A DNA stretch of 64,000 nt, taken from Vermamoeba vermiformis (lineage: Eukaryota). The position numbers and the translations under genes were made by a program. The DNA lies in the NCBI GenBank assembly GCA_045837725.1, contig JBEWZL010000211.1, positions 1-64,000 on the forward strand, written 5' to 3'. The first letter of the stretch is position 1, and every line of letters begins with the position of its first letter. A model generated the notes under the pieces. The model did not search any database. It worked only from the letters and a program-made list of their open reading frames with translations, and was not told where the DNA came from. Below are positions 92 to 62,283 of this stretch, piece by piece.

Positions 92-2171
92 TTAAGCCGG
101 GGGGGCGTGAGTGTCACCCTCATGCTTGGCCGAGTCGTTCGAGCTGAAGTGACCAGTGAGTACAACTGATTTGTTGGTCGAACTAACGCCGACAGAAGTG
201 TCGCTGCTGTCCTCGCCAGTGCCGAAGTGCACGCGACGCAACTTGGGGAAGAACAAGAAGAAGAGCACACTGCCGCCGATCAACATGATTGCAAAGCCAA
301 TGATACCAGCCTCAATACTGACGTTGTAGGGGATGATGAGCATGATGGCAATGGCAATCACACCGATGAAGACAGTGTTGTAGATAGCCCAACCGATCGA
401 CTTGGACTCGTTGTAGAGCTTGCGCTTGACGTTCTTGATCTTGTACGAGACCAACACACCGCACACGAGCAAGACTCCCTTGGTGCACAAGAAGAGAGCG
501 ACGGGCCAGACATCTTTGGATTGGCAAGTCAAGTATTCTTGAGTATCGCTGAGGAAGGTAGAAGTAGTATTGATGACAGGCTTGTACGGATCAGCAACGG
601 TCCAAGCGATGAGGATAGCGGATTCGATTAGAGTCATTGGAAGAACTCCCTTGAGAATGAGTTCCATGTTGGTAATCTTGAAGACCTTGAGTGAGCTCTT
701 GGAGAAGAGACGCCAGATGCGGTAGTTCTTCATAATCAGTGCACTGTAAGTAATACTGAAACCGAGACCGCCGAGCCAGATGCGCAAGTTGCACCAATTC
801 GCCGAAGGAACACCCATCCAGAAGAAGACGGAGATGAATGCCAGTACGCAGCCAAGGATGACGATGCTCAAGAAGACAGGTGACGAGGCACGGAAGACGA
901 TGTGACGTTGTTTGACTTGCACGTCAATGAACACGAGTACGGCGAGGAAGAGGAGGACACTGGCGACTACGATCAGCGCGATACCCAAGGGCGAGGAGTA
1001 GTCCACGAAGAGGTCTTGGATGATGTCAGCGCGGGTGTAGTTGCGGATCATATTGAGGCCCGAGAGTGGTGCTTTGAACGACAAGATCTGCGTGAGAGAC
1101 AAGCACGTGCCGTTGTAGAGGGCAGGAGCGACGCCAGGGAATGTACCACAGAATACTGAGTTTGGATTGGCGACGAGTAAGTTGTAAGCATTGGTGACTG
1201 TGCGACGAACGTTATCGGTAGTTTGAGTCGAAAAGTCACCGAGTGTCAAGAGACCAGTGTCAAATCCAGACCAAGTAGTGGTGTTGGCATAAACACTGAA
1301 GTTACCGTTGGGAATGGTGTTGACGATGCTGAAGAGTGGTGCTCCCCAGTCGTAGATGATGGAAAACATGCTGAGCTCACCGACCATTGTAGCGCTGATC
1401 AGCGATCTGACCAACGCTCGGGATGGACATGTTGGTCCAAGCTTTAGCAGCATCAGTAGATTGAGAAGAGGCACAGTCGACTTGATAGTCCTCAACCAAA
1501 ATTCGGGCAACACCGTCTTCGAGCAAATTAATAAGAATTGGATCGTATATAATAATATAGGTCCTATACTCACCTTCGAGCAGTGGGTCGTAGAAACTGT
1601 CGGTGAAAGTTGACAAAACATTCGCATCTGGATTGACTGAGCGCACGCCGAGGTAGAATGCGTTCTCGTATGACCAACTGAGTGGTTGAAGTCCAATACC
1701 AAGAAAAGCGACGTTGTTGGTTTGCGTTTGAATACCGCAAGCGATGCCAGCCAAGTAATAGCCTTCCCATGACTTCGGGTCGAGTTTAGCAACGTTAGCA
1801 CTACCAGTTCCAGCAACGGCGATGATTTTAATGTTCGCGTTAGGGTGGTCACCAGTGAACCGACTTTGCTCGTCCACATAAGCCGAAGAAGTGATGAAAG
1901 CCATGTCAAAGTCTTGCGCCACCAGATTCTGCAACTCGTTGTAGAGGTTTTCAACGGGGAAAGACTGGTACAAACGAGCAGTGACATTGAAGCCTTGCAA
2001 GAAAAGTTGTCGATCCGCGTACGCTCGTCCAAGCTCCAGACGATAGTTGTAGCCAAAATCGTTGATCGGATCTGAAAAGAATGCTGCCATTCTGAATTCA
2101 GAAGCCGCCCATGTATCACAAATAATCATGCTAAGCGCAATAGCGCCAAGAATGAACCTACTAAGTGTCAT
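92..2171 (-). CDS. Family-3 (GABA-B-like, Dictyostelium Grl-type) GPCR with N-terminal Bmp-like periplasmic-binding domain; one intron, one frameshift
   Basis: Signal peptide MTLSRFILGAIALSMII and Bmp-like motifs (INDFGYNY, WEGYYLAGIACG, ENAFYLG, SFYDP) lie in ORF 1377..2171. The 7TM part (RASSPVFL, CNLRIW, KNYRIWRLF, NESKSIG, FFPK) lies in ORF 92..2119. Intron 1517..1573; the frame switches at ~1388. Confidence 0.85.
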
Positions 2172-47286: not shown

Positions 47287-50200
47287 ATGGAAGGCGAAGA
47301 TGTTAGATTAAGAGAGCTGTATTGGTCAATTCCGACCTTGCAGGAGGTACAGTACCGCTGACCATAATTTCCGAAATAATTTATTTTATTGATTTTAACG
47401 CCAATATACGGTCATGTAATATCAACGATTACTTATTTATTCTATAAATAAGTATAATAATATTCAAATCTATGTGGCACGAATGCTATAATCGAATTTG
47501 TTGTACTGGAGTACTAATCCGTTTTACGATTATTATTAGAATATTGACCATATTCGATCGAATCTCAAAAAGACTTACAAGACGTTGACGAGTATGAAAA
47601 AATCAATGGAAAAATATACAGAGGAAAGCCATGCCTTGGCCAACCAACTTGTTGGATTTAGTTGGAGTCCGACTAGCGAAGATAAAGGTAAAGCAACGCA
47701 AATCGGGTATAAAATGGATTTATGGTACTAATAAATATTATAGAAAATATGCTTGTAACTTGCGGCGCAATGATAACCCAGATCGCGCGAGTACAAAATG
47801 GATTGGTAAGGATAAAATGAGTAGAGATTGTTTTTCGGACTAATATTTCTTAGAATAATGCATTGCATGATATATTGATCTCAGCAATCGATAAAATACT
47901 CGACGAAATGAAAGAAGACGAGCTGGTATGATAAATTAATTTGTGACTAAAAATAGATCTAACGCAAAAATGATTAGAGAGAAGCACAGAAGCAAGCTTA
48001 TAGTCAGCTTGTCAATTATAATAATATCCACCGTAAATTAAACTTAGCACTAATTGAACGAGATGAAAAGAAGCAAAAGGTAAATATTGGCCTCATCTTG
48101 CTCGAGCAAACCAAATTATCATTTATAATAATTTAAAAATTATATATTAACGCGATAAATTCCGAAATATCGTAAATTAAACCAGACGGTCTGATACAAA
48201 TTTAAGGAAAATAATATTTGAAATCGTGCAATGTTTAATTTAGTTTAAATAGGAACAAGAGGAGAAGAAGAGCTTAGAAAGAGTATTAATAGGACTTACC
48301 AATCGACTACGAGATTTGCAGACGGTTTCTCGCTTTGATTTCACGAAGAGCTTGCTGACATGGATTTACGCCAACATTCCAGCCCAAACACAGAGTAAGC
48401 ATCAATATAATACTAAAAAATTAAATATAACCGGCCTACTGTAGTGTTGGAAATATTTTCTGGCAACAAAGAGGAAATTTTGGATGTCATGCAAGGAATG
48501 GAACGATCCAAACAAGAATACCTTCAAGGCGTAAGTTATCCTTATAATACGTTATATATTACTAGTATTAATGATTATTATGGTAGCAAACGAAAGGACC
48601 TTCTTCTGTTGAAAATATCATTTCCGTGCCCAGACCGATGAATGAGGCCACGGATGTGACCAAACAAGGATACTTATACCAGCAGAACCACAATGGCGTA
48701 TGGAAGCCTCGATTTGTGATATTAAGACAGAACGAGTTCAGCGTATTCACGTCGTGGAAATCAAAAGAAGTGAAGTACAGCGCGAATTTGATGCTTAGTG
48801 TCGTTAAGCCGCTAATAGACCCCGACACGCCGTTCTGTTTTGAAATTATCACGCAAGTCAAGCGCGCACAGTTCAAGGCGTTCAATCAAGTCGATTACAA
48901 AGCGTGGATGGATATTTTGCAGCACGGCATTGCCGAGGCTTTAAATCACATTGACTCGCCGCACGTGACTCAGTCGCCGTTGAGAATGGGCAGTTCTCAG
49001 GCCTTATCGGACACCAAGCTCTTAAATCATTTGCGCGAACTGTCTGATTCCAACACCATGTGCGCTGATTGTGGTGCATCCGGTAAGTCTTTGCAACAAT
49101 TTCTTAGCAGTACCCGAGACCTTCTAATGTATAATTAAGACCCTGATTATGTGTGCATTAATAACGGTGCTTTGGTGTGCGCGGAATGTAGCACCGTTCA
49201 TCGGTCCTTGTCGCAGATCTCAAAAGTCAGATCTTTGCGAACCGATAAGATCAATCCTTATATCGTCAGCGTAAGTAATTAAAATAATATAGCAATACTA
49301 ATATGGCTTGTAGTTCTTGGAGACAATGACTAACGATATTGTTAACGCCATCTACCTCGAACAAGAACCAGCAGTAAAAATTTCAGCGCAAACAGTTTAG
49401 TAAGCAAAAATAATTCAATTTATTATTTATAATTACTAACAGTAGTTAATTTTAGTAAGGACAGACGATTGTACATTCAACGAAAATATCAGTTTAGACA
49501 ATACGCAAAGGCTCGTTTTTCAGATTCACTCGAAGAGGTTTCACAAGTACGTATATACTTTATTATACATACTATAATTAATATAATATCGTTCTAATGG
49601 TGGTACCGTAGGATCTTTTCTCGGCTTTATTGCGTGTCGATTACCCGGAGGCCGTTCAGTTTATAGTTATGGGAGCAATGCTCGACTGGAAGAATTCGAT
49701 CGATGCCAATAAGTCGTTGTGCCATTACGTCGTTGAAGATTCAAATGTCGTTGGGTTGTGGCTGTTAGTTCTCAATGACGCACCAACGACTCTTCAAGAC
49801 TCTCACGGAAACACTCCTTTGCACTACGCAGCTAATTTGGCCTTCCCAGAATGCGTCAAAGTCTTGCTTAGCGTTCTAACTCCCGAAGAAGTTGAAACCA
49901 GAAACGTGTTCAGTAAGTAGCTGTTAATTTTTTAAACTTTACAAGGGCTAATTTAAACAGGTAAAACTGCATTGGACGTGGCACGTGATCATTTGATGAG
50001 AGCAGAAGAAATCACCGATGATATGAAAGAAGTCGTTAAAGTGCTCGAAGAATTTTTGTATGGTCCGCAAGAAGAACAACGGCTGTCAACTCCACGCGGA
50101 GGCTCAGAAGAAGCCGATGTTACTGCGTCACCGCGCAGTTCTGAAAAGAAGCGGCGTGGCTCGACCGTCATGGATATTCTCAAGGGCATGAAAGACCGAC

Positions 50201-51339
50201 GAAACAGCACTGCGCAATTGAAGAAATCAGATAAGAGAAATTCAAAGGCAAATTTCCGAGCACCTGAAAAGACGGCGTCTCCTCGCGCGAGCTTAAAATT
50301 CGACGAGTCTCCGACTATTAAGTATTACCGCCAAGACGAAGTTGTGCCCCTGTCACCAACGAAATCTGGCACTTTTGCATATGGCGCCTCGCCGTACAAA
50401 GACGTCGATTTCAATGACTTAGAGGCGCTTGAACGGGCCGCGGCGGCTGTGCCAACATCACCGAGACGGGAGCGCAGTAACTCTATTACAATCACTTCGT
50501 CACCGAGGAAAGATGACGCGAAAAGAATTGCTGCGGAGACCATCACTGAAGAACCTAACACTGAAATTGCTGCAGCGGAGACTAGCGGCGATCAAGTCCC
50601 CGAGCCACATGTTGAGACAACGGACGCTGTGCCTGCCCCTGCAAACGAAACAGCGGACTTGGCGAGCAATAATCAGGCCACAGAACACGAGGCTAAAGTG
50701 GCGACTGCGCAGACCGAGACGACGAAGTGGAGGCCAGTACGAACATCGTCAAACAGTTCGGGCAGAGCTCTTGGCAAGAGCGAGTCGATGGCGGGCAGTT
50801 ACCGCAACAATCCGTACTTTACGTTCAGAAATTCCATGCGCGATCAGCTCGAGGAGTTTGAAGCCATGGAACGCAATGGAGAAAATCCAGATGAAGACCT
50901 TAAATCTGCTAAACGAGCTAAAGAAGCACCTGAATCGCGCAGAATATCGTTGCAGCTCGGAAGTAACAATACTAACTCGGCGGATGGAGACGACAAGTTG
51001 ATCCCTTCACCTCGATCCAACAAGCCGCAGTTCCAGAATATATTCGCGACCTCGAAGACTGATCCATCAATAAGCACTAATAATAACAATAATAATACCA
51101 ATAATGAGGAAAATTCAGCGTTACGCGTTTCGAGCGGATCTGTTGCCGCTATGAAAAGCAGTAGCTCGCCGACAATGCGCTTAAGTCTAGAACAATCTGA
51201 TGCAAAGTCACCTAGCAAGGACAAAGATAAGAAAGAGAAGAAAGAAAAGGATAAGAAGGCGCCTACACCTCGATCTGGACGAACAAAATTGCTATTCAGA
51301 AACAAGAGCAAGAAAGAAAAGAGCGATAAAGCTGAGTAA
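47287..51339 (+). CDS. ArfGAP with coiled-coil/BAR-like, PH and ankyrin domains (ACAP/centaurin-beta-like)
   Basis: PH domain (KQGYLYQ...WKPRFVIL...FCFEIIT...WMDIL), ArfGAP motif CADC-x16-CAECSTVHR, ankyrin motif GNTPLHYAA and a long disordered tail. Confidence 0.88.
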
Positions 51340-51471
51340 TTGTAATTGTAAACATGATCTTAGTACAAGTTTGTACCCCAGTAAATATTGTCGAATACTA
51401 GTAAACTAGTTGTAGCAGGGGTTTTGGCGGTTGGATCGTTGATTTTGCATTTTTCAATTCCAATGCATTAA

Positions 51472-53201
51472 ATGGCACAACAAGTCGTTATGACTAATAT
51501 TACCAGTTCCATAACGCTAACTGATTTATATGAGCAAAAACTGGTACTCCCAGAAGGTAAAAAAACGAAGTTGCCTTAGATTTAGACGATCTTCTAAATA
51601 CAACCCCGAAGCATCCAGAAAAATAATATAATATCAAGAAATATTATATCTGATGTTATTATACGTAAGCAAATTGTTCTAATAATTTTCTGAGCAGATA
51701 AAGTAAAATTCAAGATCAAAGAGAAAACTTACGAAGCTTGGCTCGTTTGCGTGAACAACATCGCGCAACTCCAAATAGAATTAAAAGGGAAATTAATAAC
51801 TGCACCTAGACCGTACGCCTTTTATAAAGCAGTCGTCGAAGCATTAAACCCTGGATCTCCCGAGAACAAATCCCTTGCTCGTGGAAAATCATCCAAATCT
51901 TTCATTGTTCGACATTTATCTTTGGATGAGCTAAAGAAGTATGCCTTGGCGAACAAGATTATGCGGTAATAAGCTTTGAGGCTTAGACTTAAGTTCGACG
52001 GATTTCACTAAATCTGCACAGAAATCCCAAAGTTCATTCGATCTCCCCTCGTTTAGGCTACGTGGTTGCCTATACAAGCGAGAAAGATACGCAAAAAGTT
52101 GCTGCCGAGCTGTCAAAAGAGTTTAAAAGTCTCCGCATAAGCGTAGTCTACGAAGAAAAGCGCAAAAAAGTGCTCAAAAATTGGGTTCCTGGCGCTGAAA
52201 TCCAAGCAGCGCAATCAGCTAGTGATTTGGACAATAAGATGGACGTATCCTATGGAACTGTTGGATGCTTTATTCAAGATGCTAAGGGTAATAACTACGG
52301 CGTTACTTGCGCTCACTGCTTCTACCCGCACTCGGACACTTCTTTTTTCTCATTTGCAAAAATTAATAATCAGAGAATTTCAGGTACGGCGATTCAAAAG
52401 GTGGATAAACATGATATTGCGTATTTCATGGTTCCTAAGGAGACACAGCCCAGCAACACTGTTGTCATAAACAACAGTACAGGTTTGGAGATAGCCGCTC
52501 AGAAACCAAAATTAACCGATAGCGACTGCGCTCAATCGCCGAAGAGCGATTTTTCAAGCTATAGTTATACGGAAAAGAAATATGATGTCGAGCTCAAATC
52601 AGATGGAGCCGATAATACTGCGACTAATTATGGTAACTCCCAAAACAATAACAATTCTGAAGTAAGTTATAAGCATAATGAATCAAGCGAGGAAGAAGAC
52701 TTAGATTTACAAAACGATCCTGATTACGGCGATAACTATACTCACTTAACCGATATTAGTTTGGAGTGTTGGGTTACAAATAAGCTTAGCGGCGGCTTTT
52801 CTTTGCCTGTTTTCAAGATTGGTGCAAAAACTGGACTCACGATTGGAATTGCAAGAGAAATTCGTACAGAGGTGCGTGCCCCATAGTTTTAGCTGCATAA
52901 ACTAACGATATATCTAATAGAATAGCATGGCTTTCGTTCGGATCGAATCAGTATTCCCTCACAAACAACACATTGGCGCAAAACCCGAGCGTCTATTTGA
53001 GGTCAATCCTGTTGATTTTGGAATGCATGGCGATTCTGGAGCGTTGGTAGTCACCCGGTTATTGCGGACGGTCAGTCTCGATTTATGCCCCTTGGAATCT
53101 ATGGAGGTGACGTGGATACGCCCGATAGTCATTTTGCCTATGAAATGTCTGGTGTGCTGTACACGCTGGAACTGAAACTGGGATTAATTTCTGTGCTCTA
53201 A
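51472..53201 (+). CDS. Trypsin-like (Nal1/Ssy5-like) serine protease with N-terminal RAMA-like domain; frameshift at ~53056
   Basis: Catalytic triad motifs GVTCAHC, HDIAY and GDSGALV, plus GTVGCF and KIGAKTGLTIG. Introns 51557..51697, 51966..52021 and 52872..52920 keep the frame. The 3' end is uncertain. Confidence 0.75.
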
Positions 53202-53585
53202 ATGTGGCAGCGACGATCTTTCAAATATCCTAACTATGAACCAAAAGATTATGCCGTAGGTTTGGTTAGCTGGTTGGAATGTAAAGTTCGTTAATTATTA
53301 TAAACTACTGTAATAAATTATATTATCGTTTTGTGTCTTTACTGTTAAAGATACAAAATAACATTTAACGGAGAACGAAATTAACCGAGTCTCCATCAGG
53401 ATAAAAATTGCTCCGGATGGTAAAAATTCAAAATCTAGCGTCGTAACACAATAAATGAGGCGAAATCTTAATAATTTTATTTATTTATTCGTTTGTAATA
53501 CGGCGAAGGCAACAACAGTGTTTTTTACGAAGCTAAATCAAGTTAGCGGATTTTTATTTTGTCAGATCCGACAGCTTTCTTCATA

Positions 53586-55776
53586 ATGTCATCTGCCAAA
53601 GATAATCGTAGAAATACTCTCGAATTATCGTGTATTAATTGTAGAAAGTGGCATAGCAAATGTAAGGAAACAAATCACTGAATTAATTAAATTATACCTT
53701 AATTAATAATATTTGCCTTTTAAAATACTCTCTCGCATAATAACAATACATTGGTTGTCAATATCTTTAATTTAATTTCTTTAAAAGCCCTCGATTTACA
53801 ATTTAATTTAGGCGATCGGAAGAAACCGACATGTAGCTACTGCATTGAACGCAATATAGCTTGTGTGTACGATAGGCCGCCTAAGAAACGGGGTCCTCGA
53901 GATGGTAAGCCAATTAAACATACGGATGGTGAGTTCTAATTTCTTCCTAAAGCAAAAACCGAGATGCAAGAGGAAATGGAAGTAATCAAAGCAGAAGTAG
54001 AAAAATATACGCAAGCAGCGATATATTGGCAAGCAAAGGCTCGTACAGCGGAACAACAACGGCGAGAAATGCTTTTGTGTTTTACTGGCGGACATCCAGA
54101 AGTAAGTTCTTACCTCAAACCTTTTACATTGTTACTAAATATACGGTAATAGTCGCGAGAGACATTTAAACTCAATAATTCAACGGTTTTTTATTCGCTG
54201 GTGGACATGTACATGTTAGAAGCTTTTCCATCGTACGGAGTCAAACCGCCGTTCAATACTCTCGAAGAATTTAATAACGCCTTGGGTATGTAAATTAAGC
54301 CTATATTTAGTTATAATATTTAACGATGTATTAGACTATTCCCCTCAAAAAGGATTAATGTTCAGTATCCTCGCGAACGCATCTGCTTGCGCCGGCGATG
54401 CAAAGTTACAAGAGCAGTTAGAGTTCGAAACTAAGTACGAATTTATAAAAGGTGCCAAGTAGAATAATATTAATATGAACATATTATATAGAGCGACATT
54501 AGGACCGTTGTTTGATAACAGCAATCACCATGACATACCGATCACTCATTTTCTGATGTCTGAAACCGCTCTCGTAAGTCGCTTCTATAATAGTGGAAGA
54601 TGATGTTAATATGATACTAATATAATATTAACTAGACTATCGGAGATAGAGAAAAATGGATTTTTTATTTTGACATAGCAAGAAGATCCGCCGATAACTT
54701 TGTCAAAAAGTTTCAACATAAAGAAGAAGCTTATCGACTATCAAAAATGACTAAGTACCATGAAGCAGTATCATATGCGTTTGAAGGCAATTGGTAAGAG
54801 ATCCGTAATTAGATCGTCAAAGTGGAAATTGATTATTTTCGTATAGGGCAGCAGGATTGAAAATTATTAATGAATTTTTTAATTATTACGATGTTTCTCA
54901 TCCGAAGACTGATGCGACAATAATGCAGCAAACAGACAAGATGTTTATCAACCTCTTAAAAGTCATGTTCGAAATTGGACTTATGTTGAGCCAAGATGAC
55001 TCGCAGATCACCGTGCAACAGTTTAATACTTGGATTCTATTAATAACTCAATCTGAAAACATCTTGCAAGACATTAAAATACCAGAAAAACTAAGGTACG
55101 AAGATCTTGATATTGAAAAAGTACCAAATTGACGGTTATTTGGCAGGAAAAATACGTCAATGTTGAAGAGCTGTATAAAGACACTGCTTTATCATGCAGG
55201 AAGGCAGCCACACTTCGTTCTAGAAAATATTAGAGAAATTCTTATTGCTGCACGAGATCCGCTTTGTGCTGGAGGCAATTGGACTTCAAAGATCGTCATG
55301 ATAGTCTCTGGATTATGTCTATCTTATGGCTGGCAAGATGAGCTGCGACAGGTAAGAATCGATTTAAATTCATGATTTCCTAATTTGGAAATTCTTAGGC
55401 GCTCGAGATTTTAAAGAGCTGTAGTCATCGTAAGACTATTGCTATGGCAGCCCAGGCCATTGAAAATATAGTGACTCAATATGGTAGCGGTATTTCGTTC
55501 GTAGATTACGTTCGAATGTTGAGCAGTTTTTTCGATCGACGAAGCCCAAATCCGCAAGTCAGTCACGGTGTCATCAGCGTATCTCATCACGGAGAGTTTG
55601 TATATACTCAGTCATCGAGCGACTCTAACAGTCCTGTAAGTCAAGAAGGTAGTGACGGTGCGTCTATGGAAGATTTTCAAGCGAACACATCCGATCTGAC
55701 GCAGGCGTCAGAATACTTGTTGGAGCCTGTACTGACTTCGGATATAGATATAGCTAATTTTAACTTTAGCGAATAA
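53586..55776 (+). CDS. Zn(II)2Cys6 transcription factor (paralog 2)
   Basis: CINCRKWHSKC|DRKKPTCSYCIERNIACVYDRPPKKRGP, with the same exon pattern as 24109..26479. Confidence 0.88.
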
Positions 55777-56107
55777 TAAATGTAAATAGAACAGCGGATT
55801 TTTGTACTCTTAATCCTTTCTTTGGGCAGAGCGGATCATTGCGGAATTTGAGTCCAACAACGGACGTCTAGACGCTTGATGGCATTAAAACTGTTTAGTT
55901 TCAACGTTAATCACTCTACTTGATTGTTGGTTCGGATTTATCACCAGAATCATTCATGCGATTAACCGTAAGATCCGTAACAAGTTTTTTACCAGTCAAA
56001 AACTGAAACACTACACAACCGATGGCACAAATATTGAATTACAGCATCTGAAAACAATAATTTCAAGGAAATTAACGATAAAGAGTTCATCGAACTGAGC
56101 AGTCAGC

Positions 56108-58409
56108 ATGTCGGATGAAACTAGCGTTAGCACAAGTTCAAAAGCAAAAAAATTCTCGTGTAATCGGTGTAAAAAATGGCATTTAAAATGTAAGTAATAT
56201 TGAAAGGCTTGTCAGATAATCAGTATTGCAGATCCCGCCAAGTTTATGATTTTACCAAAAAGTTTAATTAAAGTTAACCTTGATAATAACAATTATTTAT
56301 AATCCCTATATATATTGCGATTATTTTAAATATTAATTTTTTACTTTTAATTCAGGCGATCAGAAAAAACCGACTTGCAGTACTTGTGAAGAAAAGAATG
56401 TGGTTTGTTTGTACGAGAGAAAAACTCGCGAAGGTATTTACACCGTATTCTTTAATTTTCATACAGTCTAATTCGAATTCCAAAACAGGATCTACGATTT
56501 TACTTTCCGACGCGAAGAAAATAGAACAGGAATTAGAACATTTTAGGAAATTAACAGCTTATTGGCAAGAAAAAACACAATATTTATCGCAAGAGCTTCA
56601 AGCATTAAAAAATAGCGACGCACAACTGGCGATCGAGGTAACATTCTTTTTTAATCGCTTAAATTAAGTCTCAAATTAATCTAATAGTATAAATAGTCTG
56701 CAGGAGCATTTAAATTGCATAATTCTTTGCTATTTAATAATCTCCTGGATATCTACATGCTCGAAGAATTTCCGAAACACGAGATCCGACCTCCTTACAC
56801 GAATCTAGAAAGCTTTAGTCAAAATAACGGTAATATAATGGCTATATTATAAATTAGATCTGCATATGGCTAACTTATTCTTGCTAGATCTGTCACCGCA
56901 GAAGGGCTTAATGTACACTATTCTTGCAAACTCTTCGTCATTAGTAGGCGATATAAATTTATACAAACAATTAGTACACGAAGCAAAGTACGTATTGTAT
57001 TATTATTATACTATATTAATGAACGATATTCTTAACAAATTTTTCGTAGAGTTTCATTAGGCCCCTGGTTCGATAACACTAATTTAGAAGTTGCAGCAAG
57101 TCATTTTATTATGTCTGAAGCTCATATAGTAAGATATAAATATTATAATAATTATACGCAGGATATTAACGATGGTGTCAATAGTTTGCGGGAGATGTCG
57201 AAAAAGCAGAATTTTATCGAGAGATTGCAAAAAGAACAGCGATTGATTACTGTCAGAAAAACAAAAACAAAAATGAAGCGCGACACATGCAAAATTTGGT
57301 CAATTTTATGACCGTAACGTATTTATCAACACAACCGAGCGACGCCAACTTGTAAGTACTGGATCTCGGTCTCCAAGAAATTTTAAGACCTCCAATCACT
57401 ACACATTATTAATAGGTGCCGGTCTTAATATACCTCATATTATAGGGAGTTTGGATTAAAGATTGTAAATGAGTTTTATGACTCGTGTTCGACGAGTTTG
57501 AGTGGTAACGGAGAAACAAAACTGCATCGTTTAGGCATTATTTGGATGAAAGTTTTACTGGAAATTAGAGCGTGGATGGCGACACGAAAACCATTGTCAA
57601 TGCGAGATTATAATCGATGGATTGTGTTAATGGACGAAGCAGATCAGAACATCAAAACTGTACCAGACGAGACCAAGTAAGTATTTTATATCTATATATT
57701 TATGGTACCTACTTTCTATTTTAATTGCTACTATTGTAATATATCCAGAAATTTTTATCGTTCCTTACATCCAGAGAAATTTGGTTTAATTGATTGTTTT
57801 TTTCTAGGAGAAATATTCTTATGAACCATGAGTCACTACGAGGGCTATTATATCACGTTGGTAATCAGCCACAATTCCTACGAGAAAGCATTCACGCGGT
57901 GCTAGCAGCAGCTCTGATGCCAAGTAGTGCAACGACATATTGGCCTGCCAAGGCTCTTATGATGGCTGCGGGAATGTGCTTAGTCTATAATTGGCCGGAT
58001 GAATTCCATAGGGTACGGCTGTCGATCTAAAAAATATTTAAAAATATTTTTCTAAGTTATCTTTTAGGCCTATAATTTATTAGAACAGCATAGTAAGCAT
58101 CCAACAGATCTTATAGCGAAAGAAACTATCAAAAACGCCATCGACCAATTCGGATCGACTATTTCATTTTCGCAATTCGCAGAGTTGCTTAAAAGAAACT
58201 TTTCCGGGAAACGATTTCATCCAAAGTATCTCGAAAACAGTTCTGTTATTGGCATAGAAGAGTTAAGCAGTAGCACATCGTCGCCGCTAGATCCGATTTT
58301 ACCGGATCTAACTACGACTTCGCCGATGGAACAAATGCTAGGCGAAGTGCCTGAACCATTCTCGTTCGATTTTGATGCTAGTAATAGCAATCAGTTTGTT
58401 AATATGTAA
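56108..58409 (+). CDS. Zn(II)2Cys6 transcription factor (paralog 3)
   Basis: CNRCKKWHLKC|DQKKPTCSTCEEKNVVCLY, PQKGLMYTILA and GNQPQF. Confidence 0.86.
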
Positions 58410-59089
58410 ACTTGTACATAAACGGCAGGGCCAGTCCCATTTTGTTCGCGTACGTTCAGTCCAACAACCGGTTTATTCCTATTATTCTTTTTAACTATTA
58501 ACATGAAGCACCATGAGTGTAGATTTTATTAAGAGACAATTGGGCTGAGTACTAATGCCTTCGCCGGTACATCCGCGGTAAGTTTCAAACATTTATTAAA
58601 TGTTGGTAAACTGCTATCACTATTTTATACTGGAGATTGATAATAATCAATGCCTTGCTGATTTCTACCACCCTAATTAACCATTATTATTTTATTAAAA
58701 TAAATTAATTTATTTTTAAAATAGTGTTACTGTGGACCACAGCCTTAACGCATCAATAATAGAAATGCGCATATTTATAGATATTTGAGTTATGAAAATT
58801 AATTTCACCCCAAGTCCGGATGTGTATCGCCCTGGTCCAGTTGTGTGAATCAGGTCAACTAAAGCCAGCCGAAATGCACAATTTACTTAACAATTGCGAG
58901 GCCTATTTTAGTGCACCAAATCTGAAGTGGAGCTGGTAAGCCTAGATCCGATCGGATTTCAATTGATTTCGATTGTGTCTTACATCTGTTCGCACTAATT
59001 ATCTGAATTCTAAGCAGCATAATACAAATTAATAATAATCGTTGTTTTTAGGCCGGCAATATAACGCTTGCTCAGGATCTGGCGCCAGA

Positions 59090-62000
59090 ATGTTCAAACC
59101 GCCAATCCTAGTAATTTTATTATTATTAATTTTAAATGAATATTCTCTCGGACAAGTAGCTTATGAAACAGCACACCTTTCATCTGCAAGAAAAGGAATC
59201 GCATCTGTGGAAGCTGACGGATTGATTTATTTTGCTGGTGGATTTGCTTTCAACGAGTTTCCTGCTTCAAAAATACTCGATATTTATGATACAATTAATG
59301 GAAATTGGAGCGCTACAGTACTTCCAGCAGCACGAAGTTACATTACAACTTTAGTGGTCGATCCGAATATTTATTTTATTGGTGGAAGCGATTGGATTAA
59401 TATTCCGTATACTTATTCAACGACACTACGAGATTTTGTGCCTCTTGTAAATTCATCTGGCCCGACAGTTCGTGCCCCGATCCAGATCACACAACTGAAC
59501 TCAACATTAGTACTTGTGGGCGAATTCTCTGTGGACTTTTTGGACTTAATTTCACTCGAATGGAGCTACAGTAATGAATTAACGAGCTTAATCGTGCAAA
59601 ATCCTTCAGCAAACGTCATTGTGGCCGAAGAAGTTGTCATTGTGATCAGTCCACTTCAGTCAACTAGTGCTTGGGTCTATGACCTCAAAACAAAGAATGT
59701 AGCTGAATATACGAACAAGCTTGACGGCTTCTCTTCGCCGTTAACGCAATCTGAAGGATCAAATAGCGTGGTGTTCTTGGTGTTCAACGACAAGTGCCTG
59801 CTTTACAACGTCGCGAAGAAGGACTGGCGAACCTATAATACGACAAATATTCGCGTTGTTACTCACACTGGCGACTACTCTTATGTCCTCGTAGATACAG
59901 TCTATGCTGACAATTGGAACGGATCTGCCCCTGCGACACTGACCACAAGTTACACGTACGCAGCTTCCTTTGGTCCCTACATTGCACTGTACAATGCCCA
60001 GGTCTTCACGCTATACACGAACGATATGAAGTATCACGGCTCCATTTCGTACCTTACTGCTGAAGTGAACTTTGACATGGGTGTGGCGTGGGGCAGCGAC
60101 CGATTCGTGTTCCGTAACTCCGCGATGATGACAATTTTAAACGCTAACGGCATGAATACCACGTCGGAGGGTCCTTTCGGTCCGTCTCTATCAAGAATTT
60201 TTGTCTACGATGACACGACGTTGCTCCTGTTACAAGACTCTTTTCTACACACATATGTGAACGGCGCTGGCCTTACGTTAACTAAAGCAGTCCAATTCGC
60301 ACCAACCTATCTCGTTGGAGATCAAATGCTCACATTAAAACGATCATTCAAGATCCAAGATCGGCAGAGCTCACCTCCGACTTTTCGACCGGCTTCACCA
60401 ACACAACTCTCGTTTCTCAGAAAGGAAATTCCTTCGTGACCGTGTTGCCAACTCCAACGCACGTGTTCTACGAGGCTATGGACGTGTACAATTATAGAAC
60501 TGGTGAATGGACCAATGGCACCGTAGTACCCGTAGAACTGTTCCAAACGGAAACGAACGGCCCTGTTCCGATCACGTTCCTTCCCAGCGCTGTCATTCGC
60601 GACGAGATTTACGTGTGGAGACTCAACACGTTTGCCGTGTACAATGTCACTAAGCAACAATGGACCGTCTCTAACATCTCTGAAGTCACGATCTACCCGG
60701 TCTATGGCCAAGGCAAAATTTTCACGCCCGAACCTGTCATCAACGACGTAGCGTATTTGTACGCGTACCCTGGCAACAATTTTTACGTCGTTGAAAACAG
60801 CCAAGATTTGAACTGGCCCACGACATCTGAAGCGTTTGACAACACCGGACAGTATTCCTTCTCACAACGAGTGGTTTATAACGACAAGATCTACGCGCTC
60901 AGATTCACTAGCGGAAACATATACGATGCAATATTCAATTACAATCCTGCTACTAATATTTGGGACTTGACGATCTTGCCTAAACCAGTGCCGTATGCCT
61001 CGATGATGATTGGCGGAGATTTCCTGATTGTCTTCACGTTGAACTCGACGATCTTCTACTTGTCAATGTCGACAGGCCAGTGGGTCACAATAGATAACTT
61101 CTCGTACAGCTACTTGCCATCGACACGTGTCACGACGAGTACATCAATCATAATCGCTGGAGGAGTCGATCCACTCACGCATTTGAGCACTGATCTTGTG
61201 CTAATATTCGACATCAGTTCATTCGCCTTGCCTCCCGTGGCAGCCAATCAAATAGACGGACCTTCTGTACAATCAACTATTGAAGGACCTATCATCGCAG
61301 CTATTGTCGTGCCAATTGTTGTCGTTGTAGCGGCTGGCGTGGCGGTCCTAATTGTGCTCATACGCAGGCGCGACAAGAAGAGCAAGAGCAGCGTGTCGAT
61401 GGTTGGATTGGAAGCAAAGCACGGACAGTGGTTCACGCCATTCAGCGACATTCAGTTCGGTGATCAGCTCGGTCAAGGAGCGAACGGTCAAGTGTTCAAA
61501 GGTCGTTGGAACAACACTGAAGTCGCATTGAAAGTGAGTATGACACAAGCAAACACGAGCGTCATCTCAGAACTGTCACTGATGATCAACATGCGACCAC
61601 ATCCAAACATTGTTCAACTTCTTGGTTTCAGTGTGCATCCAGAGACCAATAGTATCATCTTGATCCTCGAATACTGCAATGAACGATCGTTGAGTGGTGT
61701 TCTATTTGACACCAACGAAGCGATTGAAATGGAAAAGAAGCTGTCGTGGATCAAGGGTGTTGCCCGAGGCATCAGTCATTTGCACTCGAACAATATCGTG
61801 CATCGAGATATTGCGGCGAGAAACATTCTACTGCGCAACAATGAAGCAAAAGTGACAGACTTTGGCATGAGTCGATTGGTCGATGAACAGCAACAACGAG
61901 GAACAACCAAATCCGAACTTGGTCCAATCAGATGGATGGCTCCTGAAGCGCTAAGAAGCAAAGAATACTCTACGAAGTCTGGTAAGGACCATATTAAACC

Positions 62001-62283
62001 TTAAAAAGCCCGAATAAGCGCGATCTCGTTGGCCCGTGAAAAATTAGTGACTGACACTTTGACACTTTTGACACTTTGTTTCGTTATGTATCGTACTGAC
62101 ATCCTTTGTGTAGATGTATGGTCGTTTGGTATTCTGATGTACGAAGTGATCGCACAACAAGAGCCTCATACCAACGAAGATCCGATCACGATTGGAAGGT
62201 TGATCCGTGATGAAGGAAAAACACCAGAAATACCTTCAACATGTCCACCAGCACTTGCGACACTGTCATTAATTACTTGTTGA
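59090..62283 (+). CDS. Receptor tyrosine kinase with Kelch-like beta-propeller ectodomain; frameshift ~60360, C-terminus truncated
   Basis: Signal peptide, Kelch-like repeats (LSSARKGIASV...IYFAGG...LDIYD...W) and TM helix IIAAIVVPIVVVVAAGVAVLIVLI. Kinase motifs GQGANG, VALK, HRDIAARN, DFG, PIRWMAPE and DVWSFG. Confidence 0.88.

Follow-up and report, generated by a model that had tools for sequence, protein, structure and literature searches.

Positions 51472 to 53201 of the contig stretch examined here (JBEWZL010000211.1, deposited as Vermamoeba vermiformis) hold a four-exon gene with three introns of 141, 56, and 49 nucleotides (nt), all of the GT..AG type. Coordinates are those of the forward strand of the window (the whole 64,000-nt stretch that was analyzed), and all features of the gene lie on that strand. 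The predicted product has about 494 residues (with an X placed at a break in the reading frame), and its N terminus is polar with, judged by eye, no apparent signal peptide. The peptides quoted in an earlier reading of the letters alone (here, the sequence-only reading) are present, exon 1 spliced to exon 2 gives the N terminus that it quoted, and the acidic insert and the TCAHC, HDIA, and GDSG motifs are found in exons 3 and 4. Its assumption that coding continues to 53201 does not hold, since the frame that carries GDSG differs from the frame that ends there. We read the locus, with a probability of roughly 45%, as a lineage-specific gene for a Nal1-like protease that is preceded by a basic linker and a basic, partly RAMA-like head and whose frame is broken after the catalytic serine.

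The catalytic His, Asp, and Ser occur in canonical order and in canonical motif contexts (TCAHC, HDIA, and GDSG). The protease domain is split by an intron and by the frame break; the queries for Pfam, PDB, the ESM Atlas, and AlphaFold2 (AF2) were unbroken single-exon translations, and a Nal1-like profile of three bacterial proteins, chosen by their Pfam families, was compared locally with residues 119 to 494, in which X marks the break. Similarity to confirmed Nal1-like proteins was found with this profile both by hhalign (P 7e-4 over 96 columns) and by hmmsearch (11.8 bits, E 4e-6 for one sequence), and both alignments continue past the break into the tail in the shifted frame. The score of 11.8 bits was not reached by any of 5000 block shuffles (maximum, 7.3), and when the open reading frames (ORFs) of the window were scored by the same profile, the top ones were pieces of this gene, the in-frame part of exon 4 being the best at 7.3 bits. 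A BLASTP comparison with one bacterial Nal1_C protein gave E 0.024 around HGDSG, again crossing the break. In the ESM Atlas, the neighbors of exon 3 carry the Nal1_C, NAL1_N, S64, trypsin, and alpha-lytic protease families (best score, 0.94, with 177 shared features), at a recognition value of 2264, slightly under the tool's mark of 2300. Pfam Trypsin_2 (PF13365) matched the His-Asp stretch of exon 3 with E 0.1 and 13.7 bits, compared to a cut-off of 27.6 bits. Residues ~185 to 494 are thus very probably a chymotrypsin-fold (PA clan) serine protease of the Nal1/S64-like kind, an assignment that is well supported with no curated cut-off reached. In this respect, the trypsin-like protease that had been proposed from the letters, with its His/Asp/Ser triad, acidic insert, and additional domain at the N terminus, is supported. 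Among the genomes surveyed, NAL1_N matched in only 3 of 301 genomes of one phylum and Nal1_C in only 1 of 251 of another, and 0 of 5 further genomes had a match. By eye only, the linker (residues 119 to 178) resembles the strand-helix-strand prodomain of bacterial Nal1-like proteins; it gave no profile match and no Pfam match to NAL1_N. Residues 31 to 105 of exon 3 (52113 to 52335), which overlap the linker and the start of the protease, have a subthreshold Pfam match to DUF2616 (E 0.001, 19.3 bits; cut-off, 25).

The head (residues 10 to 118) is basic, with an isoelectric point (pI) of 9.65. For exon 2, RAMA clusters stood at ranks 1 and 3 of the ESM Atlas, with weak scores of 0.78 and 0.76 and a recognition value of 1589. 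The spliced residues 1 to 125 were compared with local RAMA profiles made from PF18755-matching domains of bacterial genomes (85 of 301, 15 of 301, 13 of 301, and 11 of 261 genomes positive in four phyla; the tally of 15 includes two unpublished genomes, whose sequences were left out of the profiles). A profile of 14 non-CcrM sequences gave P 0.0021 over 49 columns (residues 12 to 65) and 10.5 bits with E 3e-5 (residues 11 to 44), a score that none of 20000 plain shuffles and none of 20000 block shuffles reached. The match covers the first ~35 to 55 residues of the spliced N terminus and corresponds to the N-terminal half of the RAMA profiles, that is, a helix and a hairpin; from profile to profile, its significance varies between P 0.04 and E 1e-5. 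This motif was found with the other profiles as well, though more weakly: a profile of 45 sequences, mostly of the CcrM type, gave P 0.034 (reached by 3 of 120 shuffles), one of 9 non-CcrM sequences gave P 0.04 and 4.2 bits (2 of 120 shuffles), and one of all 50 sequences gave P 0.012 and 3.8 bits (100 of 20000 shuffles). Leave-one-out versions of the 14-sequence profile scored the protein at 8.6 to 11.7 bits. The same profile reached at most 7.9 bits among 288 ORFs of the window; among 766 ORFs from bacterial loci, 71 scored at least 10.5 bits and the next one scored 6.6, and the lowest of those 71 among the matches listed (13.0 to 27.3 bits) were all in loci fetched for a RAMA match. Run against PDB, it picked out the genuine RAMA domains of MPND and CcrM, with 34.9 and 42.5 bits, respectively, both over the whole domain. 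The score depends on splicing, with 2.5 bits for exon 1 alone, −0.5 for exon 2 alone, and 12.1 for the spliced residues 1 to 60; because the signal appears only in the spliced product, it also supports the splice between exons 1 and 2.

Table 1. Positions of the gene's exons, introns, catalytic codons, and other features in the window
Feature	Coordinates	Strand	Description
Exon 1	51472..51556	+	ATG at 51472; residues 1-28 plus the first base of codon 29
RAMA-profile-matching stretch	51502..51807	+	Residues 11-65, spliced across intron 1; N-terminal half of the profiles
Intron 1	51557..51697	+	141 nt, GT..AG
Exon 2	51698..51965	+	Residues 29-118; bulk of the basic N-terminal domain
Intron 2	51966..52021	+	56 nt, GT..AG
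Exon 3	52022..52871	+	Residues 118-401, from the basic linker through the first protease barrel (His and Asp) and the insert into the second barrel
Basic linker	52023..52202	+	Residues 119-178, pI 9.7
Codon of catalytic His216	52314..52316	+	TCAHC, motif at residue 213
Codon of catalytic Asp249	52413..52415	+	HDIA, motif at residue 248
Acidic, low-complexity, Asn/Ser-rich insert	52479..52784	+	Residues 271-372; pI 4.2; 21 D+E versus 8 K+R
Intron 3	52872..52920	+	49 nt, GT..AG; CTAAC branch-like site
Exon 4, portion in frame with exons 1-3	52921..53046	+	Through GDSGAL
Codon of catalytic Ser440	53035..53037	+	GDSG, motif at residue 438
Zone of one-base frame shift	53047..53056	+	
Protease C-terminal tail, shifted frame	53049..53201	+	51 open codons; stop at 53199-53201

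Several results weigh against this reading, in the protease as well as in the head. For the protease, neither Pfam NAL1_N nor Nal1_C matched any exon at E ≤ 10, Trypsin_2 stayed under its cut-off, and the AF2 model of exon 3, with a mean predicted local distance difference test (pLDDT) score of 34.7, was unusable for a fold search. A HMMER search with exon 3 over 1.84 billion cluster representatives returned 0 matches at E ≤ 0.001. Word-index homologue searches likewise gave nothing for exon 3 (near and longer lengths) or exon 2 (longer lengths, E ≤ 10), metagenome scans with either exon found no relative, phmmer searches of PDB (which includes MPND and CcrM) with exon 2 and with exon 3 had no match at E ≤ 10, NCBIfam and PADLOC had no match, and tblastn of the X-joined protein within the window found no paralogue. 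As no relative of exon 3 was found, all of the family assignments rest on weak profile signals. For the head, Pfam RAMA (PF18755; gathering cut-off, 35.2 bits), run on the exon translations, had no match to exon 1 or exon 2 at E ≤ 10, and the RAMA score drops with the other profiles, as given above. The C-terminal half of the head (residues 45 to 125) scores −0.9 bits on the RAMA profile, and exon 2 alone against the RAMA alignment A1 gave P 0.18. In that alignment, Ser70 (S-P-S), Gly89, and Trp93 (N-G-W-x-x-W) are invariant and Trp90 is nearly so; the invariant Ser, Gly, and Trp are not kept in the head, and a forced alignment shows APRPYAF and SKSFIV in their places. On the half of the profile that the head matches, each repeat of an unrelated PDB repeat protein (4p99) reaches 8.5 bits. 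Finally, the protein had originally been picked for its likeness to RAMA, so that the test was not fully blind, and partly for this reason we discount the estimate for RAMA homology.

Structure prediction did not separate the candidates for the head. The AF2 single-sequence model of exon 2 shows four strands followed by helices (pLDDT 68 overall and ~80 over the first 50 residues). In the RAMA fold as described (PMC9963953), three helices are combined with two long antiparallel strands and four short ones. Foldseek, which was run with the exon 2 model only, found no match (best E, 0.12), and a re-alignment of its top 1000 lists no RAMA domain. In a fold comparison, MPND (7ydt) was listed with a Z score tied with those of the double-stranded RNA-binding domain (dsRBD), SH2, and other folds and is therefore nondiscriminating; NAL1 (among the 50 best VIA rows) and CcrM were not listed, an absence that excludes nothing. 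The RAMA-like N terminus of the sequence-only reading is upheld in part: its helix-hairpin half matches the profiles, but its second half, the signature residues, and the Pfam cut-off all fail. We tentatively take the head, at a little under even odds, to be a true but degenerate RAMA homologue, which begins like RAMA and fails the tests that define the family.

Several of the same results would fit a head that is unrelated to RAMA, namely a lineage-specific domain that serves a Nal1-like protease as an accessory or in assembly and matches the helix-hairpin motif by chance. The absence of the RAMA signature and of any signal in the second half, the missing Pfam match, the tie of MPND with dsRBD, SH2, and other folds, and the 8.5 bits of the unrelated repeat protein can all be read in this way. 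Moreover, rice NAL1 has two domains ahead of its protease, an N-terminal domain (residues 1 to 88) and an ATP-binding domain (residues 89 to 172), which are needed for the active hexamer (PMC12012508); the latter is described there as four strands and a helix, and the N-terminal domains as building the active hexamer cage. The AF2 model of exon 2 would agree with such a domain, being predicted as four strands and a helix. However, Pfam NAL1_N has no match on exon 2 or exon 3 either, the NAL1 chains lie outside the 50 best VIA rows (which, as said, excludes nothing), the Nal1-type prodomain corresponds by eye to the linker rather than to the head, and the RAMA-profile score is reached neither by any of the 40000 shuffles nor by any natural control ORF that lacks a RAMA match. 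An accessory domain of this kind is a real possibility, to which we give something like one chance in three.

Read data bear on whether the frame has been used. Run X2 also contains a diverged second version of the gene, either another copy or an allele, which is seen over 51370 to 51540 and 52028 to 52175 and whose depth is about half that of the main form. It differs from the main form at 13 coding positions within exons 1 and 3 (3 of them in exon 1, 2 of which are synonymous); 9 of the 13 are at third codon positions (binomial P of ~0.009, calculated by hand) and 8 are synonymous. Its insertions and deletions (an 11-nt insertion, one 1-nt deletion, and one 1-nt insertion) are confined to the region upstream of the ATG, and it is seen up to 52175, that is, upstream of the zone of the frame break. 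The one difference seen in run X5 is also synonymous. The excess of third-position and synonymous differences indicates that the frame has been under coding constraint, and the gene is more than chance. One contig of run X5 crosses intron 2 and retains it; the kind of this run is only guessed, so that the contig is uninformative on splicing. RNA runs X12 and X14, which bear the same species label, gave 0 matching reads among the ~13 million read from each, which is no test of expression.

The frame is interrupted within the second barrel. Reading on in frame past GDSGALVV gives unrelated sequence that stops at 53175 to 53177, and the protease-like tail, SHPVIADGQSRFMPLGIYGG..., lies one base shifted in another frame; because the tail is in that other frame, a one-base shift must fall between 53047 and 53056. 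An alternative acceptor of intron 3 that would put exon 4 into the frame of the tail was ruled out, since an upstream stop closes that frame. The letters of the break region are identical, with no differences, in contigs of DNA run X2 (52152 to 53350) and in a contig of run X5 (53029 to 53271). The two runs are from different studies; X2 is possibly the assembly's own sample. That the break is seen in contigs of both runs is a further point against our reading: the break is probably real, and the gene may be dead. The copy as assembled would yield a truncated and probably inactive protein, and the sequenced copy is either a recently disabled one or carries a shared base-calling error.

Taken further, these observations would make the locus a pseudogene, a decaying, unexpressed protease relic without a working product. 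The position of the one-base break directly after the catalytic Ser, the same letters in runs X2 and X5 of different studies, and the lack of any homologue in the sequence, cluster-representative, and metagenome searches would all agree with decay. On the other hand, the shifted tail remains open over its 51 codons and can still be aligned with Nal1-like proteins, the differences from the second copy are mostly synonymous, and, this single break aside, there is no stop codon within any exon. The break also falls at a short one-base run, a common site of calling errors, and X2 is perhaps from the same sample as the assembly. We consider a pseudogene rather unlikely on balance. It is very improbable that a 29-nt GT..AG micro-intron (53047 to 53075) removes the break from the mRNA and leaves an intact product that is shorter after GDSGAL: the GT at 53047-48 and the AG at 53074-75 enclose 29 nt (3n+2) and would join both frames exactly, but this length is far below the 49 to 141 nt of the three clear introns, no branch-like CTNAY site is seen by eye, only 8 residues would be left between GDSG and the GI strand, compared to 12 or 13 in the bacterial Nal1-like proteins seen, and the sole contig that spans the 29 nt (from run X5, the kind of which is only guessed) keeps them.

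In its most likely working form, a protein with a Nal1-like protease and a partly RAMA-like head would be a Nal1-type protease that its basic head recruits to nucleic acid or chromatin, or helps to assemble. The basic head of ~110 residues, the first half of which may be a remote, degenerate relative of RAMA, and the basic linker would precede the protease; the head might bind nucleic acid or chromatin irrespective of sequence and methylation, or it might aid protease assembly, and either role could bring a Nal1-type intracellular protease to nuclear substrates. We infer the DNA binding, the nuclear action, and any activity of the protein. NAL1 is also reported, in a reference cited in PMC12012508, to act on a TOPLESS-related corepressor. 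RAMA domains of known structure contact the DNA backbone without base or N6-methyladenine (6mA) specificity: the MPND domain binds double-stranded DNA with no preference for 6mA, the CcrM domain contacts the backbone only, and acidic flanks of MPND modulate its binding to DNA and histones (all PMC9963953). Rice NAL1 is described as an intracellular protease that is active only as a hexamer and cleaves a transcription factor (PMC12012508).

The sequence-only reading had gone further and proposed a cytosolic or nuclear protease that is gated by the binding of 6mA DNA through a RAMA reader and acts as a conflict or immune sensor-effector. Neither gating by DNA or 6mA nor a conflict or immune role found support, and such a sensor is highly unlikely: RAMA has been proposed as a 6mA discriminator and is fused to a JAB peptidase in animals (PMC4738411), the head has a partial likeness to RAMA, and 6mA is reported as abundant and essential in one early-diverging fungus (PMC12019607), but the RAMA signature residues are missing here, the RAMA domains of MPND and CcrM show the lack of 6mA preference and the backbone-only contacts just cited, PADLOC has no match, and the neighbors are ordinary eukaryotic genes (a PH-domain gene, a Zn-cluster factor, a proteasome subunit, and kinases) rather than a defense island.

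The window is eukaryotic, and its other ORFs include a class C G-protein-coupled receptor, a proteasome alpha subunit, and F-box, PH, Kelch, and protein kinase domains. The upstream neighbor (48587 to 51339, plus strand) has a PH domain and a long, disordered tail rich in Ser, Lys, and Asn; it ends 132 nt before the ATG of the protease gene, which leaves a very short spacer. The downstream gene (53586 to 58409, plus strand) opens with a Zn2Cys6 cluster (CX2CX6C ... CX2CX6C) that is split by an intron (53586 to 53672, then ~53800). Two later ORFs on the plus strand, at 55399 to 55776 and 58068 to 58409, are alike (30% identity over 53 residues, E 2e-7), which suggests tandem paralogous regulators. 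At 59039 to 62004 (plus strand), Kelch-repeat ORFs lead into a PK_Tyr_Ser-Thr kinase domain (E 2.5e-46), in what looks like a receptor-kinase-like architecture, and the ORF at 92 to 2125 (minus strand) encodes a class C (7tm_3) G-protein-coupled receptor, uninterrupted over 676 residues (E 2.9e-45).

The Zn2Cys6 cluster is a transcription factor type that is essentially fungal, and its presence in the downstream gene points to a fungus; in addition, one Atlas neighbor cluster of exon 3 is recorded from Mucoromycota. The gene thus probably belongs to an early-diverging fungus, and the notion of a protist gene is probably wrong.

Among known systems, the protein can be set beside three. It shares with the NAL1-like proteases (PF25819, Nal1_C; PF25608, NAL1_N; rice NARROW LEAF 1, 8PMM and 8PME) the order of the His-Asp-Ser triad, the '...K.G..TG.T.G...' strand before the Ser, the HGDSG motif, the 'G(I/L)..GG ... 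VL..L' tail, the intracellular character without a signal peptide (judged here by eye), an extra N-terminal region before the protease, the Atlas neighbors, and the local profile match. It differs from them in having no Pfam match above the cut-off and no phmmer match to any PDB chain, in its acidic insert of ~100 residues, its additional head of ~110 residues, and its broken frame, and in a His-Asp spacing of 33, compared to 57 in NAL1 (PMC12012508). In bacterial RAMA fusions (the CcrM methylase, 6PBD, and restriction nucleases), the domain begins with the same helix and hairpin ('vtl.dLi.aGll.pG..l ... A.v'), but there it is C-terminal to HSDR_N, GmrSD, GIY-YIG, N6_N4_Mtase, and DUF4268 partners, with a protease in 0 of 12 ORFs examined, whereas the module here stands at the N-terminal side of a protease and is without the signature. 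MPND (the animal fusion of RAMA with a JAB/MPN peptidase; 7YDT and 7YDW) has the same order of an N-terminal RAMA or RAMA-like module and a peptidase, together with acidic stretches and a basic head; it is a JAB metalloenzyme rather than a serine protease, and it retains the motifs SPS and GW, and its 34.9 bits extend over the whole profile, compared to 10.5 bits over the first third only for the protein described here. The founding survey of RAMA (PMC4738411) lists, for eukaryotic RAMA domains, animals, green (chlorophyte) and red (rhodophyte) algae, stramenopiles, and giant viruses, with JAB peptidases and chromatin domains among the partners; the accessible part of that survey mentions neither fungi nor serine proteases, and our literature search found no paper that pairs 'RAMA domain' with 'serine protease'.

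For now, the value of the locus is that of a lead, an orphan gene with a broken frame. Should the head not derive from RAMA, the protein would add a divergent member to the Nal1-like proteases, one whose head is unassigned. If the head is derived from RAMA, the architecture would be new but built from known kinds, and if it is a working RAMA relative, no RAMA-like module would have been reported before it in a fungus or in fusion with a serine protease. In that last case, the protein would also be a candidate for a DNA-associated factor of fungi, for which no readers of adenine methylation are known, and the connection of Nal1-type proteases with transcription regulators would reach beyond plants. 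It is a long shot that a degenerate, RAMA-derived head on a Nal1-type protease of an early-diverging fungus, a group in which 6mA can be plentiful, makes a chromatin-tethered protease that cleaves nuclear regulators. There is a loose parallel with MPND, which joins RAMA to a JAB peptidase, and with plant NAL1, which cleaves transcription regulators; on that comparison, a chromatin-tethered protease of this kind would be the serine-protease counterpart of animal MPND, with an architecture absent from the eukaryotic RAMA fusions listed in the accessible part of the survey (PMC4738411).

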